The notes under the pieces: model-generated | The model's input: the letters and a program-made list of their open reading frames with translations, nothing else | What the model was told of the DNA's origin: nothing | The model's database searches: none | Position numbers and translations under genes: made by a program | Origin: Hormiphora californensis | Lineage: Eukaryota; Animalia; Ctenophora | Assembly: GCA_020137815.1 (NCBI GenBank) | Contig: CM035358.1 | Location: 3,224,001 to 3,288,000 of the forward strand | DNA: 64,000 nt | Reading direction: 5' to 3' | Part shown: one piece after another, positions 3,908 to 21,682 of the stretch | Layout of the letters: each line of letters begins with the position of its first letter | Numbering within the stretch: the first letter of the stretch is position 1

Positions 3908-4930
3908 GAGAGAGAGAGAGGGAGAGAGAGAGAGAGAGAAAGTTATACCAGATGGTATACTCGTCTCACACACATATTCCGGGTGGTACCTCAAGCACAG
4001 TGAGAGAGGGGTACTGGATGTTGAGAAGAGGTTCTGAATTGGCCCAACAAACTCAGCCAGCTGAATTCGTGCAACCTCACACACAACCTGAAATCAACAA
4101 TTGGTGTTCTTCAACTAATTCTCTGAAAGAGTGTAAGCAAAACAACAATTTATATGAATCAAAATAAGTATTTTGTCAGCGTCCGTACCTGGATGAGTCG
4201 TTTTTCATCAGAAGGCAGCACTCCAAACCCACAAGCAGTTGATAGAGTTATGTGTATCAACTCAGAAAGTTGCTAATGGGGAATACAGATTTAGTGAATA
4301 TATCAAATATTATTGTTATTATTATTGTTAATTCTATAAAATGATAATATTTTGAGAGCAAAAACATTAGTTTTACTTACTTGTGCATTTCCTCTAGTGT
4401 GCGAATCAGTTAGAAATATTATTGCAATCAAGCTAGCATTGTCCCTCAATGACTTGAGAAAGTTTGCAAACTGCTCAGTTTCTGGTCCAAGCCTGTCTTT
4501 GGCATCAACAAATCGGCATTTATCTAGTGACTGACTGTAACGATCAACTTCACTCAGCTCCCTAGGTCAAATGGCGCGTTATTCAGTGTTGAACTTAGAG
4601 TTAGATTAGCAGGATATTATTATGGTAGGGACCCACGAAGGGAACCGCCCTACCACATTCAGTGTTGAGCGACTAAATTTCGTTTTCTCTCACGTTGCCT
4701 TGTTTCTCTTAAGTCGTAGCATCCTCCATTTTTGATTGATGATCCATGCAGACTTATTGAGCTTCGTTATTGGTCCTTTCAACTCTTCGTGCAGCTTTGC
4801 CACCTGCTCCCTTTCTGAAAATATCAATGAATATTAAAGCGCACAGTTATTTGGCAATCTAGCCCATACCGTAGGTGATATACTGTCGGGTTTGCCACAG
4901 ATTTTGTTGAATGGTTCTGATGCGCTCCAT
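1..4930 (-). CDS. GAPVD1: GTPase-activating protein and VPS9 domain protein 1 (RasGAP N-terminal part); multi-exon, 3' end outside the window
   Basis: Spliced minus-strand exons read MERIRTIQQNLWQTRQYITYEREQVAKLHEELKGPITKLNKSAWIINQ, LDKCRFVDAKDRLGPETEQFANFLKSLRDNASLIA and RRHLHSFPPYLRWLGCCMAEFL. These are collinear with the GAPVD1 N-terminus as I recall it (LKQERLYVNSEKQ...LYRTAWIAKQ...FVDGYKQLG...FLSRLRENPRLIA...FPHSLRWI). ATG at 4930; GT-AG boundaries. Confidence 0.85.
1308..1416. mobile_element. Short MITE with CAGGAACCGACCGAA terminal inverted repeats (hAT-like family), intronic
   Basis: CAGGAACCGACCGAA...TTCGGTCGGTTCCTG, with internal CCAATCAG and GTCACGTGAC. Related copies at 23101-23224 and 33221-33343. 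Confidence 0.75.
3822..3938. repeat. (GA)n microsatellite; others near 22590, 34320, 37095, 37457, 39730, 57430 and 62780
   Basis: Long runs of GA/TC dinucleotides. Confidence 0.95.
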
Positions 4931-5219
4931 CCTTTCATCCTATGTCTAAACTCCAGGGTTTCATACTAAAATGTATATTTTTTGTAAAACACAAATTGGC
5001 CTGCCTTTTGCCTACTTTTAGGAGCAATGAGCATCCTATATTGTCGTCGTGCAGGAGGAAAGCCACCAGTTCCAGCCGTCTTGAAAGTGCTAAAAATTGC
5101 CACCTGAAGATATTAATTATCATGCAACTCTTTTGGATCAGTAGATGGCTGGAGTCTTAGGCCTACGCTCCCGCCTCGGCGCTCCACTTCTACAGAATAC
5201 ATCAGAGGGACCTGAAAGT

Positions 5220-5410
5220 CAAATCAGAGGAAAAACGATACGAAAAAGGACGAACTGAACTGCAAAAAAACTGAAAACTTTTCTCACCTTCGCAGTTTTC
5301 GTTGCCGCGGCGTTAAATTTAATGTAGCGCGCGAATAAAAATCAGTACAACGCTGCATTTTAGAGTTGCTTGAGTTTTTGGACAAACAAATTTTTTAAAA
5401 GTTCGTCGTT
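5220..5410. promoter_or_regulatory. Putative bidirectional promoter between GAPVD1 (-) and the + strand gene cluster
   Basis: About 200 bp separates divergent transcription units and contains a CG-rich patch (GCCGCGGCG, AGCGCGCG). Positional inference only. Confidence 0.4.
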
Positions 5411-5413
5411 TTT

Positions 5414-5454
5414 TTTCAAACTTTTCAACACTACTTTAAACAAATTAATTTGAG
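5414..5454 (+). other. Genomic copy of a ctenophore-type spliced-leader exon
   Basis: TTTCAAACTTTTCAACACTACTTTAAACAAATTAATTTGAG matches, from memory, the ctenophore SL ending in ...AAATTAATTTGAG. It is followed by ATCTC, not by a GT donor, so it is not an SL RNA gene. Confidence 0.8.
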
Positions 5455-5495
5455 ATCTCTTCCAACCCGGCCCTCGCGGTCGGTTAGGTATAGTG

Positions 5496-8400
5496 ATGAC
5501 GAAAAGTACGAAGAGGAGAACGAACAAGACCACCGTTCCCCCTTCCTCGTCCTCGGATCCACGCTACAACTGCCCAGCATGTAATGTCTACTTGTACGAA
5601 GAAGATGACATCCCCTGTGTAGCTTGTGACAATTGTAACGGTTGGTTCCATTTAAAGTGTGTTGGTATTCCGGACTCAGACTATGCCAAAGTTACTGCCA
5701 AACCTCACTGGTACTGTCCCAGCTGTATTAGGCTTCCAAACTTTATACCTGCAGCTCCCCTCAAGACATCATGGGGTAAGCTGTCAGGCCAAGCTCTGTC
5801 TGATTCCTTCTCACGCCTCCTCGTCTCTGTTTCCTCTTTCCGTCCCAACCTTTTCAAGCTTCCTTCCGGAAGTTCCGGCAAGCAGTTTATAACTGAATGC
5901 ACCCGGCTCATCAAGGAATGGAACTCTTCTTCTGGCCTTGAGAGTGTTGCAATAACAGCCATCCATCTCATGGGTCCTCTCCTGTTGCAAAACCCTGGTA
6001 AAAAATCCAAACCAAGTGAGCAATCGGCTGCCCTTCTCAGACGTTTACTCCATTGGCAAGCTGGCGAATTTGACACTTTACTATCAGAGTGCATGGTTAT
6101 TCAGTCCAGGTTACCTAAGTCTACAACATCAGACAACAGAAGGGGTTTTGTAAGGATGATGTTTACAGGGAGAGTCGGAGCTGCACTACGACTACTCAGT
6201 GCTACTCCCTCTGCAGCCCTCGACATCACCCCCGAGGTGTTGGAAAACCTCAAGGAAAAGCACCCGGATGCTGCTCCTCTCAGTCCCGATCACCTCGTGT
6301 CTACCCAGCTCCCTCCTTCTTTCGAACCCGCCATTTTTCATGACCTCAACTCGGATAGCATAAGGCGAGCTGCTGCTGCCACAAAGGGCGGTGCCGGCCC
6401 AAGTGGTATGTCAGACGGCCTCTGGACCCGTATGCTCTGCAGTAAAGCTTTTAGAAAGGCTTCCGATGACCTTTCTCACGAAGTTGCCATCATGACGAGA
6501 CGTTTATGCACGGTTTATGTCGACCCCAGCTCACTAACTGCGTTCCTGTCCTGCAAGCTAATTGCCTTGGACAAGAATCCTGGGATAAGGCCTATCGGTG
6601 TTGGCGAGGTTCTCCGTCGGATAGTAGGTCGAGCAGTAGCACAACATCTCAAACCCGAAATCATCCAGGCTGCCGGCCCCTTACAACTTGCTGCCGGCCA
6701 GCAAGGCGGTGCTGAAGCTGCTGTTCACTCAATGAGAGAATTCTATGCAGACGAGGGTACTGAGGCTGTTCTCCTAGCTGATGCTCGTAACGCGTTCAAC
6801 ATCCTAAACCGGCAAACCGCCCTGGTGAACCTCAGGCACCTTTGTCCAGCTCTCTCCATCTTTGCGATAAACCTTTACCGTTTCCCAGTTCGTCTATATC
6901 TCTCCAACGGCACATTTATCCTCTCTGCAGAAGGCACCACCCAAGGGTGTAACATCGCCTCTCCTTTCTATTGTATCAGTCTTCGCCCTCTCATCGACAA
7001 ACTGTCAAGGACTTCCCCAAACCAGATTTTTTACGCTGATGATGGAGCCTCTGCCGGTTCCCTAGTTGGTGTGAGAGAATGGTGGGACGCTCTGGTCACC
7101 AACGGTCCCGGTTACGGCTACTTCCCAAGACCGGATAAGTCAGTATTAATCGTAAAACCAGAACACCTTGAAAAAGCAAAGTCGATCTTTTCAGACACTG
7201 CTGTAATCATCAAATCAGACGGCCACAGATACCTGGGCGCTCCTATTGGTACCTTAGATTACCAGCGGGAATACGTGGCCAAGGATGTTTGCCGCTGGGT
7301 AACGGATGTCACAGCGATCTCCAAAATTGCTGAAACTGAACCCCAGGCAGCATACTCGGCTTTCTGTATGGGGCTGTCAAAGAGATTTCTCTTTCTAATG
7401 AGGACGACCCCGAACATCTCTGAGCTCTTCAGGCCCTTGGAGTCAACAATTTCATCTGTTCTCCTTCCAGCTATCCTCAACAATCACATCACCCCTCTAC
7501 ACCGTGAACTGTTTTCCCTGCCTTGCAGAAACGGAGGACTTGGTATTGAAAATCCATGTGAAGTCGCGGATCTTGAGCACCAACGATCCCTTCATGCAAC
7601 TGCACCGCTCTCTCAGATTATTACTGAACAGAACATAAATATTACTGATGAGAGAGCGGTTGCAGTTGCTAAGGGATTAAAAACAGCCAAGCAGGAAGTA
7701 ATTCAGATGAAAAAAGAACACCATAAAACTCGTTTATCTGCTGTTTCCGACCAGCTAGCCCCAGACTATCGCAGACTCCATGATGAGCTTTGTAGACGTG
7801 GCTCTTCCACCTGGTTGACAACCCTTCCCTTGGAGGAACACGGCTTCAATCTCAACAAATCCGAGTTTCGTGATGCTCTTGCCCTGAGGTATGACCTTTC
7901 CCTTCGGGAGTTTCCCAACCATTGTGCTTGTGGTAAACCAAACTCCATCGAACACTGTCTAACTTGTGCTCGAGGAGGCTATGTGCATCTCAGGCACAAC
8001 CAGATTCGCGATCTAACTGCCAATCTTCTGGTGGAGGCTGGGTGTACGGATGTTAAAGTGGAGCCCCATCTTCTCCCTCTAACTGGTGAGACACTCCAAT
8101 ATGCCTCCGCGATCACCAATGATGAGGCACGTCTTGATGTCTCGGCTCGTGGTGTCTGGTCTGACTTATCAAAACTGTTCATTGATGTCCGCATCTTCAA
8201 TTCTCGAGCCCCAACCAACAAATCATTGCCAGTCAACAAGGTTTTGAAGAAGCACGAGGACGAGAAGAAGCGTGCTTATGGAGAGCGTGTACTGCAGGTA
8301 GAGAAAAGCTCCTTCACACCAGCTGTTTTCTCTACCTCTGGAATCATGGGCGATGAGGCTGATAAACTTTACAAACAAATTGCCCACCTACTCTCAAAAA

Positions 8401-8576
8401 AGACCAAACAGTCTTACCCCGATTGCATCCGGTATATCAGACAGAGACTATCTTTCTGCCTGTTAAAAACTCTTATCATTAGTCTCCGGGGTCATCGTGG
8501 CCAGAGCCCGAAGAGTTTTAGTGATCGCAATGATATTAACATTTTATACATGATTAAAAACAATAACCAGAATTAA
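5496..8576 (+). CDS. Retrotransposon polyprotein: PHD finger, reverse transcriptase, Cys/His zinc motif, restriction-like endonuclease
   Basis: PHD: CPAC...CDNCNGWFHLKC...WYCPSC. RT motifs: GIRPIGVGEVLRR, DARNAFN, GTTQG, FYADDG, RYLG, RNGGLGI. Zinc motif: CACG...EHCLTC...HLRHNQIRD. Endonuclease: ARLDV...FIDVRI...HEDEKKRAY...FTPAVFSTSG. Uninterrupted and intronless. Confidence 0.92.
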   Translation: MTKSTKRRTNKTTVPPSSSSDPRYNCPACNVYLYEEDDIPCVACDNCNGWFHLKCVGIPDSDYAKVTAKPHWYCPSCIRLPNFIPAAPLKTSWGKLSGQALSDSFSRLLVSVSSFRPNLFKLPSGSSGKQFITECTRLIKEWNSSSGLESVAITAIHLMGPLLLQNPGKKSKPSEQSAALLRRLLHWQAGEFDTLLSECMVIQSRLPKSTTSDNRRGFVRMMFTGRVGAALRLLSATPSAALDITPEVLENLKEKHPDAAPLSPDHLVSTQLPPSFEPAIFHDLNSDSIRRAAAATKGGAGPSGMSDGLWTRMLCSKAFRKASDDLSHEVAIMTRRLCTVYVDPSSLTAFLSCKLIALDKNPGIRPIGVGEVLRRIVGRAVAQHLKPEIIQAAGPLQLAAGQQGGAEAAVHSMREFYADEGTEAVLLADARNAFNILNRQTALVNLRHLCPALSIFAINLYRFPVRLYLSNGTFILSAEGTTQGCNIASPFYCISLRPLIDKLSRTSPNQIFYADDGASAGSLVGVREWWDALVTNGPGYGYFPRPDKSVLIVKPEHLEKAKSIFSDTAVIIKSDGHRYLGAPIGTLDYQREYVAKDVCRWVTDVTAISKIAETEPQAAYSAFCMGLSKRFLFLMRTTPNISELFRPLESTISSVLLPAILNNHITPLHRELFSLPCRNGGLGIENPCEVADLEHQRSLHATAPLSQIITEQNINITDERAVAVAKGLKTAKQEVIQMKKEHHKTRLSAVSDQLAPDYRRLHDELCRRGSSTWLTTLPLEEHGFNLNKSEFRDALALRYDLSLREFPNHCACGKPNSIEHCLTCARGGYVHLRHNQIRDLTANLLVEAGCTDVKVEPHLLPLTGETLQYASAITNDEARLDVSARGVWSDLSKLFIDVRIFNSRAPTNKSLPVNKVLKKHEDEKKRAYGERVLQVEKSSFTPAVFSTSGIMGDEADKLYKQIAHLLSKKTKQSYPDCIRYIRQRLSFCLLKTLIISLRGHRGQSPKSFSDRNDINILYMIKNNNQN

Positions 8577-8753
8577 TTTATTATACCCAATTTATGTACA
8601 GATAAGATTGATTTCTATATCCATTTTACTAATTGAACCGGTACCCCGGCTTTCGCAAAAAAAATTTTTTTACTTTTAGTTTTTAATTTTTGCTATGCAT
8701 CTCTCTTATCCGTCGATCTAGCCCGCTTTAACAAGATATTTCCCCTTAAGGTG

Positions 8754-10061
8754 ATGCATAGGGTGGGGAGAGCTTGCCTGTTACGCTTGAGTGCTTCTCG
8801 GCCTCTTGTTACAGCGCCAAAAACCCTCCGAAAATATGGAAATCATCAGCTGCTTAGTATCCGTGGCCTCCAAACGTCAAGCTGCCTGTTCGAAGTGAAA
8901 ACCATCGAGACCCCTACATTCCCTGACTCTGTAGCAGAAGGTGACATTATTTGGTTGAGGGAGGTGGGAGATGCTGTCGAGGAGGATGAGGTTATTGGCG
9001 AGATTGAAACGGATAAGACCACACTTCCCGTTCAATCCCCTGCCGCTGGTGTCATCACTGAACTTCTTGTATCTGACGGAGATACCATCGCCAAGGGAAC
9101 ACCCCTAGCTAACATTGATATTGGTGGTGCAGGTGCTGAACCAGCTAAGGCTGCTCCAGCAACACCAGAACCTGCCGCTGCACCAGCCCCTCCTCCAGCT
9201 GCCGCTGCTGCTGCCCCAGCTGCAACAGCTCCTATCCCTGAGGCAATTGGAACCCCTCCCCCTACTCCCTCCGCCCCTATTTCTGTAGCCCCACCTCCCC
9301 TGCCCAAAGCAGCTCCCGCCCCGCCTGTCGTGCCAGCTGGGGAAATGAAGCCTCCTGGTTTGAGGGGTGAGCACGCGGTTAAGATGTCCCGAATGAGGTT
9401 GAGGATTGCTGAGAGACTGAAGGAGGCCCAAAACACCGCTGCAATGCTCACTACCTTTAACGAGATAGACATGACAAACATCATGGCGCTACGAGGAAAG
9501 TTCAAGGATGATTTCAACAAGAAGCATGGTATCAAACTTGGTTTCATGTCCGCCTTCATGAAGGCATCTGCCCAGGCCCTGGCTGAGATGCCTGAGGTTA
9601 ACGCGTACATTGATGGCAAGGAGATTATCTACCGAGATTACGTGGACATCTCTGTTGCTGTGGCAACCCCTAAAGGACTTGTTGTGCCTGTGTTGAGGAA
9701 CGTGGAGACGATGAGTTACGCTGATATTGAGAAAGGATTGAACAGTCTGGGAAAGAGGGCCAGGGATGGGGATCTTGCTATTGAAGATATGGATGGAGGT
9801 ACCTTTACTGTGTCTAATGGAGGAGTATTTGGATCCATGTTTGGAACACCCATTATCAACCTACCCCAGTCCGCCATCCTTGGTATGCACGCCATCCAGG
9901 AGCGACCTGTTGCCAGGAATGGGAAGGTGGAGATAAAGCCGATGATGTACATTGCTCTCACCTACGATCATCGACTCATTGATGGTCGTGAGGCTGTGAC
10001 GTTCCTGAAGAGGATCAAGTCAGGTGTCGAGGATCCTGGTATCCTCCTTCTGGACCTCTAA
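8754..10061 (+). CDS. DLST: Dihydrolipoyllysine-residue succinyltransferase (2-oxoglutarate dehydrogenase E2), mitochondrial; intronless
   Basis: Mitochondrial transit-like N-terminus, lipoyl motif EIETDKT, Pro/Ala linker, [27 protein letters not shown], catalytic TYDHRLIDG. Confidence 0.97.
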
Positions 10062-10357
10062 ACGAGATGAAATGAGAGAGTTGCTAGTGGGACTGTACTG
10101 GGACTGCTGCTTTTTCTGAAACTCTTATCTAATTGGGACGGAAAGTGTGTTTGTACATAGATTTAGGAGAGATAGAGAGAGAGATGGTAGCTCTAACTTT
10201 CTGGCATGTTTTTTGAATTATAACAGGCTATGATATTTATTACACTAACGACAAAACCCGTTTGTTTCATTTCTTTTGTACGTTGTTAACCCCCCCCCCC
10301 CCCTCCCCCACTATTGATTCAATTCTAAACATCCCTCTATTTCCCACAGGTTGTGAG

Positions 10358-11935
10358 ATGTTTGTCCAGAGGGTTGTTTCCCACTCTAGCGGAGTCGGTC
10401 GGTGTATCTCGACTGTTCGCAACAGAGTGGGCCTGAAGGAGTTAGCGGACATTCACCGTCGAAATACCGACATCATCCGAACCAAACGAGATCGGGACCG
10501 AGAGGAGAGAACATCTAAACCGAATATCTCCACTACTGTTGCAGTTCACAACACTTTAGTCTCACAATCTCCTCCCCCGCTCATCAAATTCAACTTATCG
10601 TGTCCTGGGTGTGGTGCTAAGTACCAACACAAAGACTCCGATAAACCCGGTTATTTGGAGGAAGGGGTGATGAAGACTTGGGATACTATCAGTCCCGTAC
10701 CTTGTCAGCGGTGTGTCAGTATCAGTGACCTAAAGGATCACCGCATGTACTCTTGTACCGAGGAGAGGTTTAGGAAACTGCTTAAAAACATTGCCAGTAG
10801 ACGATCTCTGACGGTGATAGTGTGTGACATAGTTGGGTTTCCTACGACCCTCCCTCCATTCATCACAGATATCTTCCCCCGGGACATCGCCCCTGTTATC
10901 CTTGTGCTGAACAAGTGTGACGTCATAGCGGAGAAACCAGGGACACTGACCACAGTTCAGAAGTATTACAGCGGTGTTGTAGAAGCGTGGGAGAGGGTGA
11001 ATAGGTTCAAGTTTTCTGAGGTAATGTATGTTAGCGCCAGGAGTGGTACTGGTGTTCCAGAACTCTCGGAGACTATCCAGTCTCATTTGTACGGAGATAT
11101 GGGGCTGGACAAGTGCTATCTGATCGGTGCCACTAACGCAGGTAAATCAACTCTCTTCAACAAGCTCCAGCCCCTTCTCAGGAGGGATATGGGGTGTTTG
11201 GGCTGGGTTACTGAATCATCCCATCCTGGTACTACCGTCACCAATATCTCTACTGATGTGTCCCCTCCTGGAGAGAGGTTATCCGGTAAGGTGAGACGTC
11301 TCCAGGCCATCTTGGAGAGATCCTCCGCCCCTGACTATAATAGTAGTTCCACCGACTGGTTCTCTCAGCAGATAAACCACCAGCTGGATGGTACAGAGGG
11401 TAAAGCCCTGATTGACACCCCGGGTGTGCTACCTGCCAACACCCTCCCTGAAGCCACCTTTACCTGCCAAAACTCCATCCTCCGTACTGACCTCACAATG
11501 TCAGCGGGTCAGGTTCTCAGTTTCGGGTGGTACAAGATTTACTATGCGAGAGGGAACAACAACATTCGTCTTGCCCTCCATTCCTCCAGGATCCTGACAC
11601 CCCAACTTATATCAGAGAGTTCCGATAAGCGGGTGGGTATGTCCGATACAGGAGTGGCACTAGCTAACAAACTCTATCTCATCCACAATGTCAATAGGAA
11701 GCCAGGTCCGGTAGGGGATATAGTGCTGGGGAACCTGGGGTGGGTTACTGTGAGTCTGAGCCACGATGATGATGTTACGGTTGTGGTGCTTGGACCCCGG
11801 TTAGAGGACATCCAGTACAGGACACCCGGGTTGTTGCTCAAGATGAAGGGTAAAGGAGGGGTGATGAAGAGGGAGAGTGAGCTAGTTGTGGAGGTGGTAG
11901 AGGAGGAGTATGAGGGTGAGGGGTCAGCAGAATGA
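10358..11935 (+). CDS. NOA1: Circularly permuted YqeH/NOA1-family mitochondrial GTPase; intronless; probably continues into 11910-12899 across a 1-nt frameshift
   Basis: Zinc motif CPGCG...CQRC, then G4 NKCD, G5 SAR, G1 GATNAGKST, G2 PGTT and G3 DTPG in permuted order, and a C-terminal DIVLGNLGWV. ATG at 10358 follows the acceptor TTCCCACAG. Confidence 0.85.
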   Translation: MFVQRVVSHSSGVGRCISTVRNRVGLKELADIHRRNTDIIRTKRDRDREERTSKPNISTTVAVHNTLVSQSPPPLIKFNLSCPGCGAKYQHKDSDKPGYLEEGVMKTWDTISPVPCQRCVSISDLKDHRMYSCTEERFRKLLKNIASRRSLTVIVCDIVGFPTTLPPFITDIFPRDIAPVILVLNKCDVIAEKPGTLTTVQKYYSGVVEAWERVNRFKFSEVMYVSARSGTGVPELSETIQSHLYGDMGLDKCYLIGATNAGKSTLFNKLQPLLRRDMGCLGWVTESSHPGTTVTNISTDVSPPGERLSGKVRRLQAILERSSAPDYNSSSTDWFSQQINHQLDGTEGKALIDTPGVLPANTLPEATFTCQNSILRTDLTMSAGQVLSFGWYKIYYARGNNNIRLALHSSRILTPQLISESSDKRVGMSDTGVALANKLYLIHNVNRKPGPVGDIVLGNLGWVTVSLSHDDDVTVVVLGPRLEDIQYRTPGLLLKMKGKGGVMKRESELVVEVVEEEYEGEGSAE

Positions 11936-12895
11936 CTTGGTGTTCGAGAAAGTGATGTTCCAGAATGATCTGGAGGATCGGGAACACAACTTGATGTCTG
12001 CAGCAGCAGGTTTTGGCAATGTGATTACCCCGTCTCTCCCCACCCAACCTCTCCCAACCATAACCGCGAGAAAGTCAACCATCATGAAAAGTGGAGATGA
12101 TGAGGATAATGATTTGTTTGATGATTTGGATGATGAAAAGGCAAAGAAAGCAGCCGCAAATAAGAAGAAGGAGAAGGAGAAAGAGAAGAAAAGGTTGGCA
12201 AAGGAAAGGACTGTTGAAACACCAAAACAAATTCCAGAGCCCGAGTCATTTGAAGAGTTTAAAATCAGACGTCAGAAAGAGAAGGAAGCACAATATAAAC
12301 AGAGTTTGAAAAACAAAAAAGGGAAGTTTGTTCCAAGAGCACGAGTTGGTTTGATGGATAACGATTGGAAGAGGGAGAGTGAGCTAGTCGTGGAGGAGGT
12401 AGAGGAGTATGAGGGGGAGGGTCAGCAGAATGACTTGGTGTTCGAGAAAGTAAACAAAGTGGTGTTCCAGAATGATCTGGAGGATCTAAGTGATCTGGAG
12501 AATAGGGAACACAACTTGATGTCTGTAGCAGCAGGTTTTGGCAATGTGATTACTCCGTCTCTCACCACCCCACCTCTTGCAACCATAACAGCGAGAAAGT
12601 CAACCATCATGAATAGTGGAGATGATGAGGATGATGATTTGTTTAATATTTTGGATGATGAAAAGGCAAAGAAAGCAGCCGCAAATAAGAAGAAGGAGAA
12701 GGAGAAAGAGAAGAAAAGGTTGGCAAAGGAAAGGACTGTTGAAACACCAAAACAAATTCCAGAGCCCGAGTCATTTGAAGAGTTTAAAATCAGACGTCAG
12801 AAAGAGAAGGTAGCACAACTTAAACAGAGTTTGAAAAACAAAAAAGGGAAGTTTGTTCCAAGAGCACGAGTTAGTTTGATGGATAACGATTGGAA
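11866..12895 (+). repeat. Tandem duplication of about 500 bp encoding an acidic/lysine-rich tail (ORF 11910-12899)
   Basis: Units start GAAGAGGGAGAGTGAGCTAGT at 11866 and 12368. They are near-identical, with small in-frame indels. Confidence 0.9.
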
Positions 12896-13076
12896 ATAAG
12901 TTTTGTTGTTTTGTACTGTGTGTTTTGTAAAAGGTCTTTTAATTTATTATGGTCTGCCGAAAACTTTTATTCAAATACGAATCACCGACTCTTGACTACT
13001 CAATTAGTTCTAAGCTGCCACCCTCTAACCCACCCCCTCTCTCCCTCTCTAAGATAGTATCTTAGTAAGATACGAT

Positions 13077-14863
13077 ATGACCATAGAGGATACTACTAGT
13101 AAGATGGTTCCAATGCTAGAGAAACTGTGTGCGGAAGTGATAACCCAACACCCTGATCTTCCTGACCTGTCCTCTGCTCCCTTTCACATGTGTGATCTCC
13201 TACTGGAAACCTCCATCAATAAAGACAGGTGAGACAAACAGAGATCGGACCGTTCAAACTCTATCTCATGTATGTGAGCAACACACACGTGAACAATGTA
13301 CGCACAAACATTCTTGATTTGCCGAACACTCAACACATTCGACACATTACGGTAATGCCACTACAACCTGTTTCAGGATGGCTATGGTACAGCGATTGTT
13401 TGAGCAGTGGCCTCACTCTGAAGCTGTTATGACACTAAAACCTATGCAGTTACACTGGTTGAGGACACTGGCCTTCCTTGAACACCAGGGAAGGGTATCT
13501 AGTCTGTTGGAGAAAGTTTGGGTTTATGCTCCATTTGCAGGTAACGAGGGGCGGTTTTGGAGGCAATAGATGGGGGTGAAAGTCGGGATTTATTGTATCA
13601 AATGGATTTTAGATCGAAATTTATTTGAGTATGATATCCCCTCTTTCTTCTATCGTCCTGCGCTGTCTCTCTCTCTCATGTTGTCTCGTGCGCTACGTTT
13701 AATTCAGGATTGCCAAGAAGAGAGGGGACACCGTACCCAAGAAATTTATACAGTTTTGACTTTTGTACTGATCCCTCCCAACTTTATACACAGGTTACGT
13801 TAGTACGAACGTTCTGTGTTCGGCAGCTGTCGGTACCCTTGAATCCTACCCTCCCTGCAACATAACTGAGAACCACCCCGTTACCTACCACCATCCTCCA
13901 CCGAGAAAACGGCCCCGTGTAGATCACAAGAAGGGTCGCCGAACTCTCTCAATTCACACACCACTTAGTTTCAACTCTTCAAATATATCCGGTCTATTCC
14001 GGTATGTGCAGACCCGGCCAGAGAGAAGGAACATTAATCTCCTCCCTACTGCCCTCATCTTCACATCCCTCCCCTCAGTCAGTATTTTCAAAGCTCTCAG
14101 AAAGGTGGATCACTCACATTTGGGGATGCTAGGTATGGACTTTTGTTTGCAGCCCGGACAGGACTTGGACCAGGCAACAGACATGACAGTCATTTCAGAA
14201 CTAAAATCTCTCCAAAACATTTCTCTAACATACGATTACCTATGCGGGAGTGAGAAGGAACACAATCTGATCCGTATCATTCACTCTCTACCTAACTTAG
14301 CACGGCTGGACCTCAGTGGCAACAACCTAAAACACGGTGTACACCTGTACGCTCCACCCCAAATCAGGGAACTGGTCCTGGGAAACACATACGCTACAAC
14401 TGAGAGTCTAACACTGCTGGGCGAGAAGTGCGGAAAGAGCCTGGTGTACCTTAGACTCACAGATAACGCACTAGGTTCACGGGACAGGTTGAGGGGGTTG
14501 ATATCACTGTTAAACCAGTGTACACAGTTGAGTGCACTAGATCTATCAGGGAACCACTTCCCGGGTCAGCCCCACATTGGGTCCTTGTTGGAGGCACTCG
14601 ATGGAGTCAGGGAAACATTGGAGAGACTTGATATAAATGATAATCTGATGTTGGAACGAGAGAGGGGTGAGGTTATCGGGCATGTTGCCAAGTTTCCCAA
14701 ACTCAAATCTCTCCATCTCGGATCGTATCTACCTGAGTTGCTGCTATCAGATAGGATATTGGAGAGGGAGAGGAGGTTAATGGACACGGTGTGGGAGAGA
14801 CCTGATGTTGTCATGACGGAGGGAGTACTGGATTTTACTGCAGTTGAAATTGGACCTTTGTAA
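13077..14863 (+). CDS. LRRC14/PRAME-like leucine-rich repeat protein (3 exons: about 13077-13228, 13378-13540, 13794-14863)
   Basis: N-terminal BC-box-like VPMLEKLCAEVI, the motif LFEQWPHS (compare LVxxWP in PRAME/LRRC14), and RI-like LRRs LARLDLSGNNL, LSALDLSGNHF and LERLDINDNLM. Confidence 0.7.
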
Positions 14864-14992
14864 TTTATTGGGATTTGTTTATTGTGATTCTGTTTTTACT
14901 GTTTTATTAAACTGAACTGTTAATTTTGAGATTAATTTATTTGTTTTTATTTCGATTCTCAAACTTTATAACTTGCCGTCCTTTAGGGCTCA

Positions 14993-17742
14993 ATGTTATC
15001 TCCAGATACCTTTATATCAACCCAGTCCGCCCTTCTCGCCCTCGACAAAGCAGAGGAAACAGCACAGAACAAACTCCTATTCGATGGGCAGTCTCCAAAA
15101 GATCTTGAACAGCAGGGTGTCTGTGTCACTAAACTAGTCCCCCAATCCGTGGCAACAGGTCTCTATGGACGGAGGGTTGTTGTATTTGGACGAGACCAGA
15201 TGCCTAATCACAGCTTTAGTAGCGGTGATATCGCCTGTGTGACACATCGCGATCTATCTGCTATCTGTGAAGGCATTGTCAGTAAGTTGGGCAAGGCAAC
15301 CATTGCAGTAGCGTTCGATGTACTGAGTGAGGATGTTCTGGGGTTGAACAAGGTATGTCTGATAAAGCTGTCAAACAGTGTCACGTTCACCAGGCTGGAG
15401 AAGTGTTTGAAACAGATAGAGAAGGGTGAGAACCCTCTTATTGAGAAACTCCTCTCCTCCAATCCATCCCTATCTTCTCCAACTCCCTCCTCCACCACCA
15501 TGACACCCTTCAACACGAACCTAAACACTGGTCAAAGAGCTGCAGTTCAACTAACCCTCCAGCGATCTGATCTTGCTATTATCCATGGACCCCCCGGTAC
15601 AGGGAAGACTACCACCATAGTAGAGGTGGTTCGACAGCATGTGGTGCTAGGTGAGAAGGTGCTGGTGTGTGCCCCATCTAATATTGCTGTTGATAACCTT
15701 CTCGCTAAACTAGCCCCTACCACCCGAGTTATCCGAGTTGGGCACCCTGCCAGGGTCAATACAGAGCTCCAGAAGTACTCGCTGGATGCCCAACTTAAGG
15801 CATACGATGAGGATAATATCCTGGGTGATATCCGATCTGAGATTGATGCTACTTTGTCAGGACCGTTCAAGAAAGGTGCTCCTAGGATTGGGGAACTGAA
15901 GAAAGAGCTGAGGGAGAGGGAGAATAAGGCACGAAGGGAAGTGTTATCTAGGGCCCAGGTGGTTGTTTCAACTCTTACATCTGCTAGTCGGGAGGGGCCT
16001 CTTGGTAAACTTCCTAAGGATCATTTCTCAGTTTGTGTAATTGACGAAGCATCACAAGCCCTCGAGCTGGCCTGTTGGATGGGGATACTCAACAGTCGCA
16101 AAGTTATTCTCGCTGGTGATCATTGTCAGCTACCCCCAACTATCAAATCAGAGAGAGCTGCTAAGGAGGGTTTAGCGCTAACACTTATGGAGCGGTTAGT
16201 TAAAACAACCTCTCAACCTGGGGGAGGTGTGTGTGAAGCTGACAGAGCAATACAGGATGAACAAGCTCATAATGGAGTGGAGTAGTGGGGAGTTGTATGA
16301 TGGGGAGCTAACAGCCCACTCTTCTGTATCAGACCACCTTCTTTCCGACACTCTGGAGGATACTGAGCTCACCTCCACTCCCCTCTGTTTTGTGGATACA
16401 GCGGGTGCTAACTTGTTTGAAACTACAGTTGGGGTCTCCAAGGGTAACCCTGGTGAGGCCCAGCTAGTGGTTCAGTATGTTACAGAGTTGATAGAGAGTG
16501 GTATTAGTGAGCGGGATATCGCTGTGATAACCCCTTACTAACCTCCAAATAGAGCTGGTGAGGGGTGAGATGAAGGGGAGGTTACAGAGAGGTTGAGGTG
16601 TGCTCTGTTGATGGGTTCCAAGGGAGAGGAGAAAGATGCTGTTGTGATAACGATGGTGAAGGAGTAACGAGAAGGGAGAGATTGGGTTTCTGGCTGAGGA
16701 GAGAAGGATGAATGTAGCTGTGACTAGAGCCAGGAAGCATGTTTGTCTTATTGGGAACAGCCAGACTGTGAGAAGAAGCGCCTTTCTGGGTAGGATGGTG
16801 GATCACTTTACTGAACATGGTCTCGTTAAAACTGCATTTGAATTTGATGTAACGGTTGAGGAGGAAGTGGTGGTGATGGGAGGTGATGATGATCCGGAGC
16901 AGGAGGAGGAAACGAAGAAGGAATCATCTAAACACACTCCACAGAAAACTGATGGTCCAACGTACAAGATTACTACCCAACAACAGTTGGAGGCCTTTAT
17001 AGCTGATGAAGGTAGGATGGAGTTATCCCTTCCTGGTTTGAATTCCTACCAGCGGAGGATAGTTCATTGTTTGTGTGAGGAGTTAGGGTTAAAATCAGAG
17101 AGTAGTGGTTCAGGTACTAACAGGACTATCACTGTGACAAAGAGTTCTGGGGAAGAGGAGAAACCCGCAGATATACCTGGAGAACAAAAAACACCAGTTA
17201 TAGCCCCCGAAGAATTGAAACTTAGTGCTGATTCTAAAACACCACCAGAAGATCCAGCAATTATCCCTGACCTAAGTAGTCTAGTTGTGTGTAAACAGTG
17301 TGGGAAGAGGATCCCCTCTCCTAATATGGAGCTGCACCTAATACACTGTAAACCTAAAACATTCACCCCAACCCCATCTGGCAAGGGAAAGAAAGCCAAG
17401 AAACCAGTAGCCCCAAAACCTAAACCACCCAAACAAAACCTAGATCAGGATCTAGATGATTTCGCACTGCTGGACCAGGCAATTCAACAGAAAAACACTT
17501 GTATGAAGGAAGGGTGTAAGGGTAAGACATTGTCCTATATAGCACCATGTAAATACTGTTCCCAGTGCCACTGTACTGATCACCAGTTCCCAGAATCCCA
17601 TGGGTGTGGTTTAGCAGCTAGGCAGAACGCACGTGCTCCTTCTGCAGGATTTTCTGCAAGGAAACATGAATCTGCTAAAGGAAGGTTGAAACAACAGTTA
17701 CAGGACAAAGCTAAGGGCCGGACTAAAAACAAGAAATCCTGA
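14993..17742 (+). CDS. IGHMBP2: DNA-binding protein SMUBP-2 (UPF1-like SF1 helicase, R3H domain, AN1 zinc finger); intronless, with about five single-base insertions at 16220-16660
   Basis: IHGPPGTGKTT, VCAPSNIAVDNL, IDEASQ, GDHCQLPP, QYRM, ITPY(N)LQ, SVDGFQGREK, RRMNVAVTRA, R3H motif LNSYQRRIVH, AN1 motif CKYCSQCHCTDHQFPESHGC. Confidence 0.93.
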
Positions 17743-17957
17743 AATTGTTGTTTTATTTTGAAAAGTGTGAGAGACGAGAGTGTCAGTATATTTGTTCCTG
17801 TGTTTTTTGTGTTTCATTTTGAAATTTGTTTGGGATTTTTACATATGTAATTAAGTTAGTCTTCAAGCTTTGTAGGCCCGGTTCTAAATAACCCTCCTAT
17901 CTCTAGCCCCGTCTAGCAATGACATCACCATAAATTACAGTCCCTGAGAGAAAGGTC

Positions 17958-18856
17958 ATGTTCCTTATTTTACTGCTATCTGTGATCTTGTCTGTGAAGG
18001 GACTAGGACCGGTACTACTAAAGGAAAATGAGGCCCTCTTTCACGAGAGGTTATCAAATGGGGAGATGAAACAATACGTCCTTAGAGATCTGATCTCAGG
18101 TGATTATTGTCAGAATGACAAACTCTCAATATTGGTGTATCTCCCTTGTGATTATTTGAAGAGTTTGTCCCGTTTTTAACAGTAGAAACAGTTCATGTGA
18201 TTCTTCCAATAGATCTGCTCTCAATAACCATCTCTCTCTCTCCACCACTAGGTCAGGTGTATGAGTTAAAAGTCAGTTACCCAGCCTCCCAACCCTTTGA
18301 TTTCACAATCTCCTTCTCCTCCTCCTCCCACACAGAGGAGCTGCCTCAAAGGAAGTTACTGGATGTTGAGAAGGAGGAGTTCACACCAACATCAGATACA
18401 GTCTTTGTTAATGTGAGTTACTGGTCCCTGTGTAATGTGTATCGGGATGTAAAACAGCTGTTCATACCTTCATGGGATCCCGAGAGTGTCAGATTAAGGT
18501 GTCCTGTGACCTGTATCCTGTTTGTATTGCCATGTTATTCTGAAGAAGTCATTATTTGCCAAGATGTGTGAAATAGGAGGCAGGTTAGATACATGTTACA
18601 CACTGCAATACTCAACCTCAATGTTCATCCTCTAAAAACCCTCCCTCCTCCTCAGGTAATAGCACGAGATACCCAGCGATCTCTCCGTCCCTCTCCGCAC
18701 GTTACCTACTCTGTCATGTTTGAGAAGGTACACAATGGAATCCCTGCCCAGGCGTACAAGCTAATAGCCTGGTTGTGTGTCTGTCTCCCTGTCTCATTGG
18801 GGACTAGTTGGTGGGTGTATAATAACTGGTACTGTGGGAAGGAACATAACAGCTGA
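17958..18856 (+). CDS. Small type I membrane protein, possibly Pga1-like (3 exons: about 17958-18099, 18252-18413, 18656-18856)
   Basis: Signal peptide MFLILLLSVILSVKG, lumenal YELKVSYPASQPFDF...RKLLDVEK, C-terminal TM segment LIAWLCVCLPVSLGTSWWVY. Family assignment is from memory and tentative. Confidence 0.6.
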
Positions 18857-19222
18857 GGGAGGGATGATTGGTACAAAGTATACAAATCTGAGTGAAACTG
18901 GAAACTTTCCTGGATCCGTGGAAACTAAAAACAACCCGATGTCAGAAGAATTGACCAAGAACAAGACCTGAAGAAACGAAGAAGACAGCAAATATTTAGA
19001 TTGACTAATTAACCAACTTTACCCCGACTATTAAAATACCGTTTTTTTTTCATACAAAAATTTGCAGCCTAGCGAATAGAATCTTGCAGCCTAGCTGAAG
19101 GCTTAGAAAAATATTTTTTTAGATTTCTGAAATTCGGGGCACTGGGCATACATGATCAATGATCGTTGATCATCTTCCTCCTCCTTTACAAATTTATAAC
19201 AAACCCCATCCCTCATCTAGCA

Positions 19223-21682
19223 ATGGACGTTACCAGAGTATCATGGCCGATTATCTACCTTCTAACCGCCTTCCTGAAACTATTCCTTCTTCACTCCTAC
19301 TTCTCTACTGACTTTGATGTACACAGGAACTGGCTCGCTATAACTCACTCACTCCCTCTCAGCCAGGTGGGACATTGTGCGAGTATATAAAGCGGAAAAT
19401 TGCAGTTCAGACACTGGGGGAGTAGCTCAAATGGTAGAGCGCCCGATTCGCATTCGGGAGGTAGCGGGATCAATGCCCGCCTTCTCCACTTTTTGTTGGA
19501 ACTTTTTAGAAATATGAATTCAGTAAATTACGAGGCTTCATTTGGTCTTGAAGATTTGTGGACTATAATTTTCACTTTATATGATTTGGACAATTACCTG
19601 TTCACTGGATCTTAATTGTAAATTGATAAAATGGGTCAAATATTGACCTTGTCATTCAAAAAGTGGAGAAGGCGGGCATTGATCCCGCTACCTCCCGAAT
19701 GCGAATCGGGCGCTCTACCATTTGAGCTACTCCCCCGGCATGCAGGCCGTCATTCTGGGCTGGGTGACTCAGATTTAGTGCCTACCATTGTCCTGTTATG
19801 TGTCAAGTGACAGGGGACGCATAGAGAGGAGGGTATGAGCTAGCTTTAGCTTGTTACCAAAGGAAACTAAGACTTGTGTGTGTACAAGTATTTTATGCAT
19901 TTGTAGGTTGCCATAAAAAGTGGTAGTAGTGCACGCTATAAATCAGATTACTCGAAATTTCGTTGAAAATCTCAAAGTCACGGATAGATCACGCATAATC
20001 TTAGTGTTCGTTCCCGAATTTTCAACTTTATATGGAAAACTTTAAATTGTTTGCCTTCCGTTCCCATCTATGGTAACATGCATTTATGTAAACCTAATTA
20101 ATTAACTATAGTCTATGGAAAAGTACTTTTTGCATTTCAGTCACATTTTGCAAACTCTTCCCCCTTGTCTGTAGGGCGCGAGACTGATTCAATGGGGTGT
20201 TAACATTTGATGCGCGCGCGATCTCCAGAATTCTGTGATCACGTGACCTGTGTGCACCTACACAACTTTACACGCGTTTTAGCATTGTTTTAACACCTTT
20301 CCATCACACAACTAACATTAAATATGTTTCAGTGGTATTACGATGAAACATCACAGTGGACACTCGACTACCCTCCCTTCTTTGCCTGGTTTGAGTGGGC
20401 TCTCAGCCACATAGCTGCTCTGGTGGACCACAAGATACTGACCCTCCAAGCAGAACCCTACCACTCCCTCTCTACCCTCATCTTCCAGCGGTGTTCTGTT
20501 ATAGTATCAGATATTGTACTCTGCTACGCCTGTTACAGAGCCGCTAAACCGCTAGAGGCGGGTGTTGTTGGCGGTAAAAAAGTGGATAGCTGGACTTGTA
20601 AACTGTTGTTAGTTGGTTGTTATCTAGGTTGTGCGGGACTACTGATAGTAGACCATGTTCATTTCCAGTATAACGGATTCCTATCCGGTCTCTTCCTCCT
20701 CTCCCTATGTGGGGTGCTGGAGGGGAGATGGGTGGAGGGTGGCTTCTGGTTTGCTGTGCTCCTCAACTTCAAACATATCTACATGTACGTTGCACCTGTA
20801 TACTTTGTGTACCTACTGAGATGCCACGTGTCTCAACCCGGGCAGTTCCTGGGTGTCAACTGGAGTGGGCTGATAAAACTTGGTCTAACTGTTATTGGAG
20901 TTTTAGTGGCATCCTTTGGACCCTTCCTCTCTCACATCCCCCAGATTCTATCCCGGCTATTCCCCTTCCAAAGGGGTCTCTGTCACGCGTATTGGGCCCC
21001 CAATATCTGGGCACTGTACAATACACTAGACATCACCGCTACTAAAGTCCTCCAACTCGCTGGAATAATGCCAAGTGATGGTCAGGTGCACCCTCTAATG
21101 TCAGGCCTGGTACAGACTTCAGACTTCAAGGTCCTCCCAAACATCACCCCACTTCATTGTGCGACCCTGACCCTCGCTCTGTGGTCCCTACCCCTGATAA
21201 AACTTTTCAAATCTCCCTCCCCTGAGAGGTTCCTAAGGAGCGTGGTATTTGCAGCATTCACCTCCTATATGACGGGATATCACGTCCACGAGAAGGCCTT
21301 GCTTGTCATCCTAGTTCCATACGGACTAGCCCTATTCCTAGACTCCTCTACAGCCAAGGACTACCTGTTTCTCTCTGTTATTGGCACCTACTCCCTCTTT
21401 CCCTTGTTATACCAAGTCCAGGAGCTCCCTCTCAAGGTTGTAATACACATCATGCTACATTCCTTCCTTCACCCAGCCCTAGTATCCCTTCACGGAAGGG
21501 TGGATATGAACAGAATGGAGAAAGTGTATTTATGGGGTCTTGTGGGACACTTTATCGTTACTGAGATTGTGTGCCCTGTGTTGTTACCCGACAAGGAATT
21601 CCTGCCACTTATGTTGTACTCAGTGTACTGTGCAGTTGGTTTCCTCTGGGCTTATGTTAGAGTGTGGGTCAGTGTGTGTTAG
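19223..21682 (+). CDS. ALG8: Dolichyl-P-Glc alpha-1,3-glucosyltransferase ALG8 (exons 19223-19366 and 20333-21682)
   Basis: [82 protein letters not shown]. Confidence 0.96.
19416..19488 (+). tRNA. tRNA-Ala(CGC)
   Basis: Cloverleaf with acceptor stem GGGGGAG/CTTCTCC (G3:U70), anticodon arm CCCGA-TTCGCAT-TCGGG, a downstream TTTTT terminator and an upstream TATATAA. Confidence 0.95.
19664..19736 (-). tRNA. tRNA-Ala(CGC), identical copy on the opposite strand
   Basis: Exact reverse complement of 19416-19488, with its own T5 terminator. Confidence 0.95.

Follow-up and report, generated by a model that had tools for sequence, protein, structure and literature searches.

A polymorphic, leader-headed LINE beside a promoter-like block in the ctenophore Hormiphora californensis

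In trypanosomatids, CRE elements are described as inserting in the genes for the spliced leader (SL) RNA (PMC12278014), while nematodes harbor NeSL/Utopia elements, SL-specific or U2-gene-specific long interspersed nuclear elements (LINEs) with a restriction-like endonuclease (RLE) (PMC4640811). SLs are also reported joined to transposable elements (TEs) themselves—e.g. six genomic SL exons are merged to TEs in Schistosoma mansoni, and are proposed there to derive from trans-spliced and retro-transcribed RNA (PMC5832876), and about 30% of TE Iso-Seq reads carry the SL in Hydra (PMC12220107). Trans-splicing removes the 5' end, where LINEs usually keep their promoter, and the persistence of LINEs in a trans-splicing animal is therefore a question. 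Here we describe an R2-like LINE that begins with the SL in the ctenophore Hormiphora californensis, found upstream of DLST, the gene for 2-oxoglutarate dehydrogenase E2, in a stretch of 64,000 nt (hereafter the window; contig CM035358.1, positions 3,224,001–3,288,000, forward strand).

We find that a polymorphic, leader-headed LINE beside a host promoter is real and well supported at this locus. As to its origin, we judge it somewhat probable that an SL-trans-spliced RNA of the element was reverse-transcribed nearly as far as its cap and that the copy entered a T-run in what is likely the DLST outron, where host transcription reading through the site could express it.

The element, its leader, and its alleles

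The element has a single intact open reading frame (ORF) of 1026 aa at 5496–8576 (+). Ahead of it, positions 5414–5454 (+) hold a 41-nt sequence that ends in TTTGAG and runs on into ATCT, hence without a GT donor, and another 41 nt separate it from the ATG. These coordinates are as given in the original prediction, which took the 41-mer for the ctenophore SL, rightly so: it matches the 44-nt leader published for H. californensis at 41 of 41 positions, with only the first three bases of the leader absent from the genomic copy (PMC8527503). The leader points to a pleurobrachiid-type ctenophore as host. The same source counts 718 genomic SL copies in an assembly of 110 Mb and finds that at least 56% of Iso-Seq reads carry the leader. 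Arithmetic from 718 copies in 110 Mb puts the chance of a correctly oriented copy within at most about 100 nt of a given start codon at about 3e-4, and the window contains no second copy of the SL or of the element.

The 5' untranslated region (UTR; 5455–5495, +, 41 nt) has a hairpin stability not above that of shuffled sequences (z −1.26), and the 3' end likewise folds no better than shuffles. The 3' UTR (8577–8656, +, 80 nt) lacks AATAAA and leads into an A8 tail (8657–8664) and a host T7 run (8665–8671), which together form the 3' junction (8657–8671, +) and, for the T-run, a likely target-site duplication. A T8 run lies at the 5' junction (5409–5416), its final three T belonging to the SL itself; both ends are thus as originally described. 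Accordingly, the element presents the signature by which SL-relic retrocopies are recognized, i.e. a genomic SL without donor GT at the 5' end together with an A-tail.

Assembled contigs of four runs were aligned to 4200–10200, with a second alignment on 8580–8790; X1 represents organism A (sample S1), X11 represents organism B, and X5 is listed as DNA by guess. Seawater runs with a small share (X12–X16) and runs with zero share (X17–X18) were excluded. One X1 contig (depth 44.6) is identical to 4872–5396, continues with seven other letters, and resumes at 8666, skipping 3269 nt. This is the empty allele, and the orthologous site is also empty in organism B, where a single 1927-nt X11 contig covers 4200–5078 and 8715–9172 with about 400 nt between. 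The filled 3' junction is bridged with zero differences in X1 (8637–8695, depth 32.7) and X2 (8634–8695, 31 letters per side, depth 18.5), in both cases at about half the depth of the common downstream contig (64.6 in X1 and 32.6 in X2). S1 therefore carries both filled and empty alleles, and the insertion is recent and still segregating. Because the empty site holds no SL, the leader was brought by the element. The empty allele that the original prediction had proposed to look for thus exists, and it bears out, with the SL head and the A-tail, the retrotransposition origin proposed there, as well as the statement that this copy does not reside in an SL RNA gene as CRE and NeSL elements do.

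Other copies of the element are present in the same sample. An X1 contig spanning 5434–5950 (21 nt of SL, the UTR, and the ORF) is unbroken and has a depth of 200.7, compared with 181.9 for the element body, which suggests about five or six full-length copies, all leader-headed; this is a rough figure, as the depth of a contig does not equal a number of copies and rare variants drop out. Over 2851 nt, four X1 contigs of the element show 8 differences from the window. In organism B the element occurs elsewhere, at about 3–6% divergence, compared with 4–7% for DLST. In all four runs depth climbs toward the 3' end, as 5'-truncated LINE copies predict, and the locus thus displays the hallmarks of target-primed reverse transcription: an A-tail, 5'-truncated copies (from the depth gradient), and an empty allele.

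Some further joints were seen among the contigs. Loose ends before other SL copies tend to finish in AAG (at low agreement). An X11 joint from 5452 to 5414 puts two SLs in tandem, spaced by seven letters, recalling stacked SL relics, and an X5 joint from 8179 to 5414 crosses from the endonuclease region to an SL start, which may mark an SL-headed insertion within a further copy. Separately, positions 8629–8663, i.e. the last ~28 nt of the 3' UTR and the tail, also occur in contigs with other upstream sequence, at a depth far above that of the element body, and these contigs are candidate sister families or non-autonomous passengers. We rejected the idea that this common 35-nt end is the 3' half of the SL RNA, as the contigs give no joint from 5454 to 8629. 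The 3' 22-mer of the element has no match in metagenome contigs, and a degenerate SL motif has none in viral contigs or in prokaryote genome contigs.

Protein domains and the heads of relatives

The domain order of the protein is that of RLE-type (R2-like) non-LTR retrotransposons—i.e. a reverse transcriptase (RT) followed by a CCHC knuckle and RLE in one ORF—with a PHD finger in front. Pfam identifies the PHD finger at aa 26–77 (5571–5726, +; E 1.9e-7) and RVT_1 at aa 362–517 (6579–7046, +; E 9.7e-6, under the curated cut-off), the RT core carrying YADD at aa 513–516. The CCHC knuckle and RLE active site (7923–8186, +) comprise C810, C812, H820, C824, RHN833–835, E856, D881, and D897. Across 58 aligned sequences, both Asp of YADD and the Cys, His, Glu, and Asp of the CCHC/RLE are invariant. 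A profile of these 58 sequences matches reverse transcriptases of LINE-1 and R2 among PDB entries (E 5e-11 to 4e-5), and the predicted model is confident (mean pLDDT 90.2), its seven top Foldseek matches all being R2 proteins (best 8gh6, E 4.6e-19; also 9nl3, 9nl2, and 9dou) at about 15% identity.

The closest PDB matches of the PHD finger are Pygo1 (E 1e-7), Pygo2, TAF3, and ING2. Its Y24, L33, E35, C41, and W50 align with Y341, V350, D352, A356, and W366 of Pygo1 (positions hand-counted from the alignment), which are given as residues of the pocket for methylated lysine 4 of histone H3 (H3K4me) in PMC2726290. By this alignment the finger keeps a Pygo-type pocket, and it is predicted to bind H3K4me.

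A protein search returns 140 relatives (the closest at 80%), a metagenome scan adds 79 loci (31–45%), and no relative is found in viral contigs. In trees of the RT and RLE the window element clades with L001, L002, L034, L037, L055, L072, L025, L020, and L003, with a support of 1.0 in FastTree (86 rows) and an SH-aLRT of 97 in a 44-row subset. SL-likeness was scored in the 120 nt before the ATG (P < 0.05) for 22 of the 79 loci, namely 21 whose ORF reaches 950 aa or more and that have 20 nt of upstream sequence, together with L015, which was put in the clade by its likeness to L020 and not by the tree. An SL-like head is found in 4 of 8 clade loci (L001, L034, L037, and L055) and in 0 of 14 others (Fisher P = 0.0096), and L002, although below the threshold, has TTTGAG 49 nt upstream of its ATG. 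Despite distant proteins, L034 and L037 have an exact 24-mer in common: the head of L037 equals the last 22 nt of the leader of L034, and past a common GT the sequences differ. Pfam detects a PHD finger in 5 of the 7 clade loci and in none of the 11 others.

Several smaller features were noted in these relatives. L034 and L037 have a further weak 23-nt match downstream, and in each of the 3' regions of L001 and L034 a similar bulged hairpin motif occurs twice ahead of the A-run. An AT-hook-like GRP motif precedes the PHD finger in L001, L002, and L055, and is absent in L034, L037, and the window protein. Four loci outside the clade (L006, L013, L027, and L052) adjoin short microsatellites, which suggests other target preferences in the wider family. 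A ribozyme or an SL stem-loop at the 5' heads was considered and is unsupported by folds of the element and its relatives: among eight folds of relatives' heads, L002 19–75 alone stood out (z −2.6), and Rfam gives only chance-level matches for the element and five relatives.

A proposed life cycle and its alternatives

The insertion likely lies in the DLST outron, with a conserved promoter-like block upstream of it and the DLST acceptor downstream. A CpG-rich block at 5289–5368 (9 CpG in 80 nt, with TCAGT at 5342–5346) aligns in organism B, as does the DNA from 8715 on, while the sequence on both sides of the block does not (joints 5165–5289 and 5368–8715). This block is a candidate promoter that would serve DLST and, in the other direction, a multi-exon gene on the minus strand, and T-rich tracts lead away from it on both strands (5212–5288, 48% A on the plus strand; 5369–5413, 47% T). 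The latter tract (+) is host DNA that precedes the insertion and likely forms the upstream half of the outron. Host DNA to the right (8665–8750, +, 48% T; 60% T in 8665–8714) extends to the candidate DLST trans-splice acceptor, AG at 8749–8750. We infer that a start near 5344 would give the empty allele an outron of 145 nt. The DLST contig of X5 has its first base precisely at 8749, a hint of trans-splicing at this AG that is weakened by the guessed DNA label of the run. With the conserved, promoter-like block, the position that the original prediction had assigned to the element, between promoter and DLST acceptor, is supported.

In the mechanism we propose, the SL at the start of a young, intact R2-like LINE would reflect a trans-spliced element RNA reverse-transcribed nearly to its cap, probably by target-primed reverse transcription at a T-run that left a short T duplication. 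Having lost its original 5' end to trans-splicing, the new copy would depend on host transcription. Transcription from the DLST promoter would run through the element, the element RNA would be released by cleavage and polyadenylation close to the A8, and DLST would acquire its SL as before, 85 nt further on, so that a new two-gene unit would be formed. The PHD finger would bind H3K4-methylated nucleosomes, which is predicted to raise the odds of landing beside promoters, and it is the one positive lead for targeting. A wider version would hold for a whole clade of LINEs in marine animals—i.e. that the PHD steers insertion to H3K4-methylated DNA closely downstream of promoters, that a preference for T-runs sets the sense orientation within U-rich outrons, that the elements have given up their own promoter, that SL trans-splicing renews a capped 5' end in each generation while the host gene keeps its leader, and that the surrounding gene cluster is a first ctenophore operon—and taken as a whole we regard it as unlikely.

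A number of results weigh against the proposed mechanism. On the side of expression, neither an element–DLST read-through RNA nor an SL joined at 5454 is found in any run (assembled contigs, none confirmed as RNA), and in X5, the one partly RNA-like run, 8676–8747 is uncovered, though the sample may lack the allele. GAG is a poor, disfavored acceptor, and it is used at 0 of 6 candidate host acceptors inspected; for both reasons re-splicing at the terminal GAG of the relic is doubtful. On the side of targeting, a single insertion site has been mapped, and in S1 the two 3' flanks of other copies that could be read from single contigs lack a T7 run (two-contig loose-end consensuses, with agreement 0.4–0.7, were excluded as flanks). 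The expectation of the original prediction for other copies is thus upheld for the SL heads, which full-length copies and some relatives carry, and not, in these two flanks, for a T7 run. Among 57 loci with a C-terminus, 15 have an A-tail of at least 8, followed by T in 10 of the 15 and by T-rich DNA in 3 of the 15. The Trp of the predicted pocket is present in every family PHD displayed and the Tyr is not conserved. At the locus itself, no contig of X1 contains the filled 5' junction (5397–5405 is uncovered, and the bin depth of 42.6 is accounted for by the empty contig), so that the junction rests on the window sequence, and 5397–5413 differs between filled and empty alleles by five extra bases and one substitution. 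Lastly, clade loci are kin, and 4 of 8 versus 0 of 14 is therefore not independent evidence, and the heads of L001, L002, and L034 fit residence in an SL gene, as follows.

In these three loci the SL-like head is followed by GTATGA and a common segment of about 55 nt (L001: 332–390; L002: 19–67; L034: 40–95), with 26 of 28 nt alike between L034 and L002 although L034 belongs to a different subclade. This segment could be the start of the SL-RNA intron, which would make L001, L002, and L034 residents of SL genes like CRE and NeSL. Alternatively, it could be element UTR, because it includes the main start codon in L001 and L034 and because host exons also begin with GT, as do those of DLST and the GTPase gene. 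A short upstream ORF whose stop overlaps the main ATG was read by eye in L001 and L034.

These heads are the core of the first alternative, in which master copies sit at the exon–intron border of SL-RNA genes and are transcribed from the SL promoter, acquiring the SL exon without trans-splicing, and the DLST copy is an off-target stray. Trypanosomatid CRE elements offer a precedent (PMC12278014), the genome has 718 SL copies (PMC8527503), the segment recurs in a second subclade, and insertion exactly at the donor would leave an SL without GT after it, as seen here. Against this, the DLST site is empty of SL before insertion, no joint connects 5454 to the common 3' end, and the readable 3' flanks differ mutually and none starts with GTATG (among the flanks listed, most of them unreliable two-contig consensuses). 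The segment in L001 and L034 also holds the element's start codon and short upstream ORF and may be UTR, and L034 and L037 have the leader in common but not the sequence after the GT. We consider this alternative improbable overall, though it survives best.

The second alternative is marginally less probable again: a self-promoted LINE, in which the SL is an old, fixed relic, an internal promoter lies in the SL copy or the 41-nt UTR, and the element came to lie at DLST through a preference for T-runs or open chromatin together with chance. Other LINEs have compact internal promoters of about 40 nt, and the original statement that there is no room for one does not follow from the sequence. The SL is on all assembled X1 5' ends, the flanks of other copies vary, and the heads of L001 and L002, closely related loci of a single sample, are unlike, as drifting relics would be. 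A T-rich box in the dinoflagellate SL has, moreover, been proposed as a promoter (PMC12014239). However, the relic equals the current leader at 41 of 41 positions, yet the element is 3–6% diverged from that of organism B (DLST 4–7%), and heads in other hosts differ from that of the window but keep the TTTGAG end.

An assembly artefact joining a repeat to the locus would explain the filled 5' junction missing from X1 contigs, and frameshifts in a conserved helicase gene (16200–16700) speak for it, but contigs of two runs cross the 3' junction exactly, with a depth about half that of the flank, which makes an artefact very improbable. Domestication as an RT gene serving the host as first cistron, suggested in the original prediction and favored by the intact ORF, the orientation shared with host genes, and the similar spacing, is refuted: the sample itself has an empty allele, organism B lacks the insertion at the orthologous site, several near-identical copies lie elsewhere, and tail and SL are intact. 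This reading has practically no chance of being correct.

The host gene cluster and comparison with known systems

Downstream of the insertion, DLST (8754–10061, +) is intronless (Pfam 2-oxoacid_dh, E 1.7e-84, and biotin-lipoyl) and is the first host gene of a cluster of six co-oriented genes or ORFs. The rest (10358–21682, +) comprises a GTPase, an LRR protein, an IGHMBP2-like helicase, a small spliced gene, and ALG8. Most are intron-poor housekeeping genes separated by T-rich gaps of 129–365 nt: from stop to ATG, 296 nt lie between DLST and the GTPase gene, followed by gaps of 177, 129, 176, and 365 nt, none with AATAAA. Operons have been delimited as co-oriented genes less than about 250 bp apart (PMC12460157); three of the five host gaps (177, 129, and 176) are under this distance, and 296 and 365 are over. 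From its layout 8754–21682 appears operon-like and is a candidate ctenophore operon. One account states that operons had not been reported in ctenophores (PMC7986045), and the titles and abstract starts in our literature search give no report of one. The original prediction had the element at the same spacing of about 180 bp as the downstream genes, which is correct for the element (177) and two of the five host gaps (177 and 176) and not for those of 129, 296, and 365 nt. The 177 nt from the stop of the element to the DLST ATG arise from its own 3' UTR and tail plus pre-existing host DNA.

Within the cluster, two inverted tRNA-Ala(CGC) genes (19416–19489, +, and 19663–19736, −) lie in an apparent intron of ALG8. 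The helicase gene has several frameshifts at 16200–16700, from either an assembly error or a pseudogene, and a tandem duplication of about 500 nt with 90% identity (11866–12895) overlaps the end of the GTPase gene.

The locus therefore points to an operon-like cluster in Ctenophora, and some of the 718 genomic SL copies in Hormiphora now have a concrete potential source in the element. If the proposal is true, a promoter-adjacent, chromatin-reading RLE element would also interest engineers of R2-type proteins. Titles and abstract starts, with most subscription papers and Repbase outside, yield no SL-headed ctenophore LINE, no PHD-bearing RLE element, and no outron targeting.

Among described systems, the element resembles in layout the CRE clade (CRE1, CRE2, SLACS, and CZAR), reported to have a single ORF, an RT with a C-terminal RLE, a poly(A) tail, and a link to the SL (PMC12278014). 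All catalytic residues of the SLACS/CRE REL motif, as presented in PMC12857005, are found in the element; its spacers are 8, 20, 22, and 15, compared with 9–10, 19–33, 9–21, and 12–14, so that three are off by one, and RLD replaces R/KPD. By contrast, the DLST site is not in an SL-RNA gene (as the empty allele and the orthologue without SL indicate for this one site), and a PHD finger takes the place of the C2H2-like fingers of CRE elements; Pfam finds neither a C2H2 finger nor an Ulp1 protease in the element protein. No named CRE sequence is among the protein-search, profile, or ESM Atlas matches (ESM Atlas returns unnamed RT clusters only), and the label "CRE" thus expresses a resemblance. 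NeSL is likewise an SL-associated, RLE-type LINE in an animal, but is described with an Ulp1-like protease and an SL-gene target (PMC4640811), whereas the element is dispersed in single-copy DNA. R2 proteins provide the top fold and profile matches, at about 15% identity; unlike them, the element lacks a ribosomal DNA target and has a PHD finger instead of the zinc finger and Myb domains.

With regard to the leader, the SL-bearing TEs of Schistosoma and Hydra are the nearest parallel, and for those of Schistosoma the same origin is proposed; in these reports, however, chimeric assembly could not be excluded by the authors and no family is named, whereas the element here is intact and polymorphic, has one junction confirmed in reads, and belongs to a clade in which the SL head recurs. 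The SL-relic retrogenes of dinoflagellates (DinoRL) are also described as bearing a genomic 5' SL remnant that marks reverse-transcribed, trans-spliced RNA (PMC12014239), but they are passive copies of host genes and the element is autonomous, and no transcript with an SL in tandem with a relic is seen for it in the assembled contigs. Finally, the RFC140-flp operon of Hydra is presented as a case in which a promoterless newcomer is expressed through a host unit and trans-splicing, with a T-rich intergenic region being sufficient (PMC3273482). The flp gene is fixed, horizontally acquired, and downstream of its host gene, whereas the Hormiphora element is mobile, lies upstream, and is proposed to be co-transcribed.

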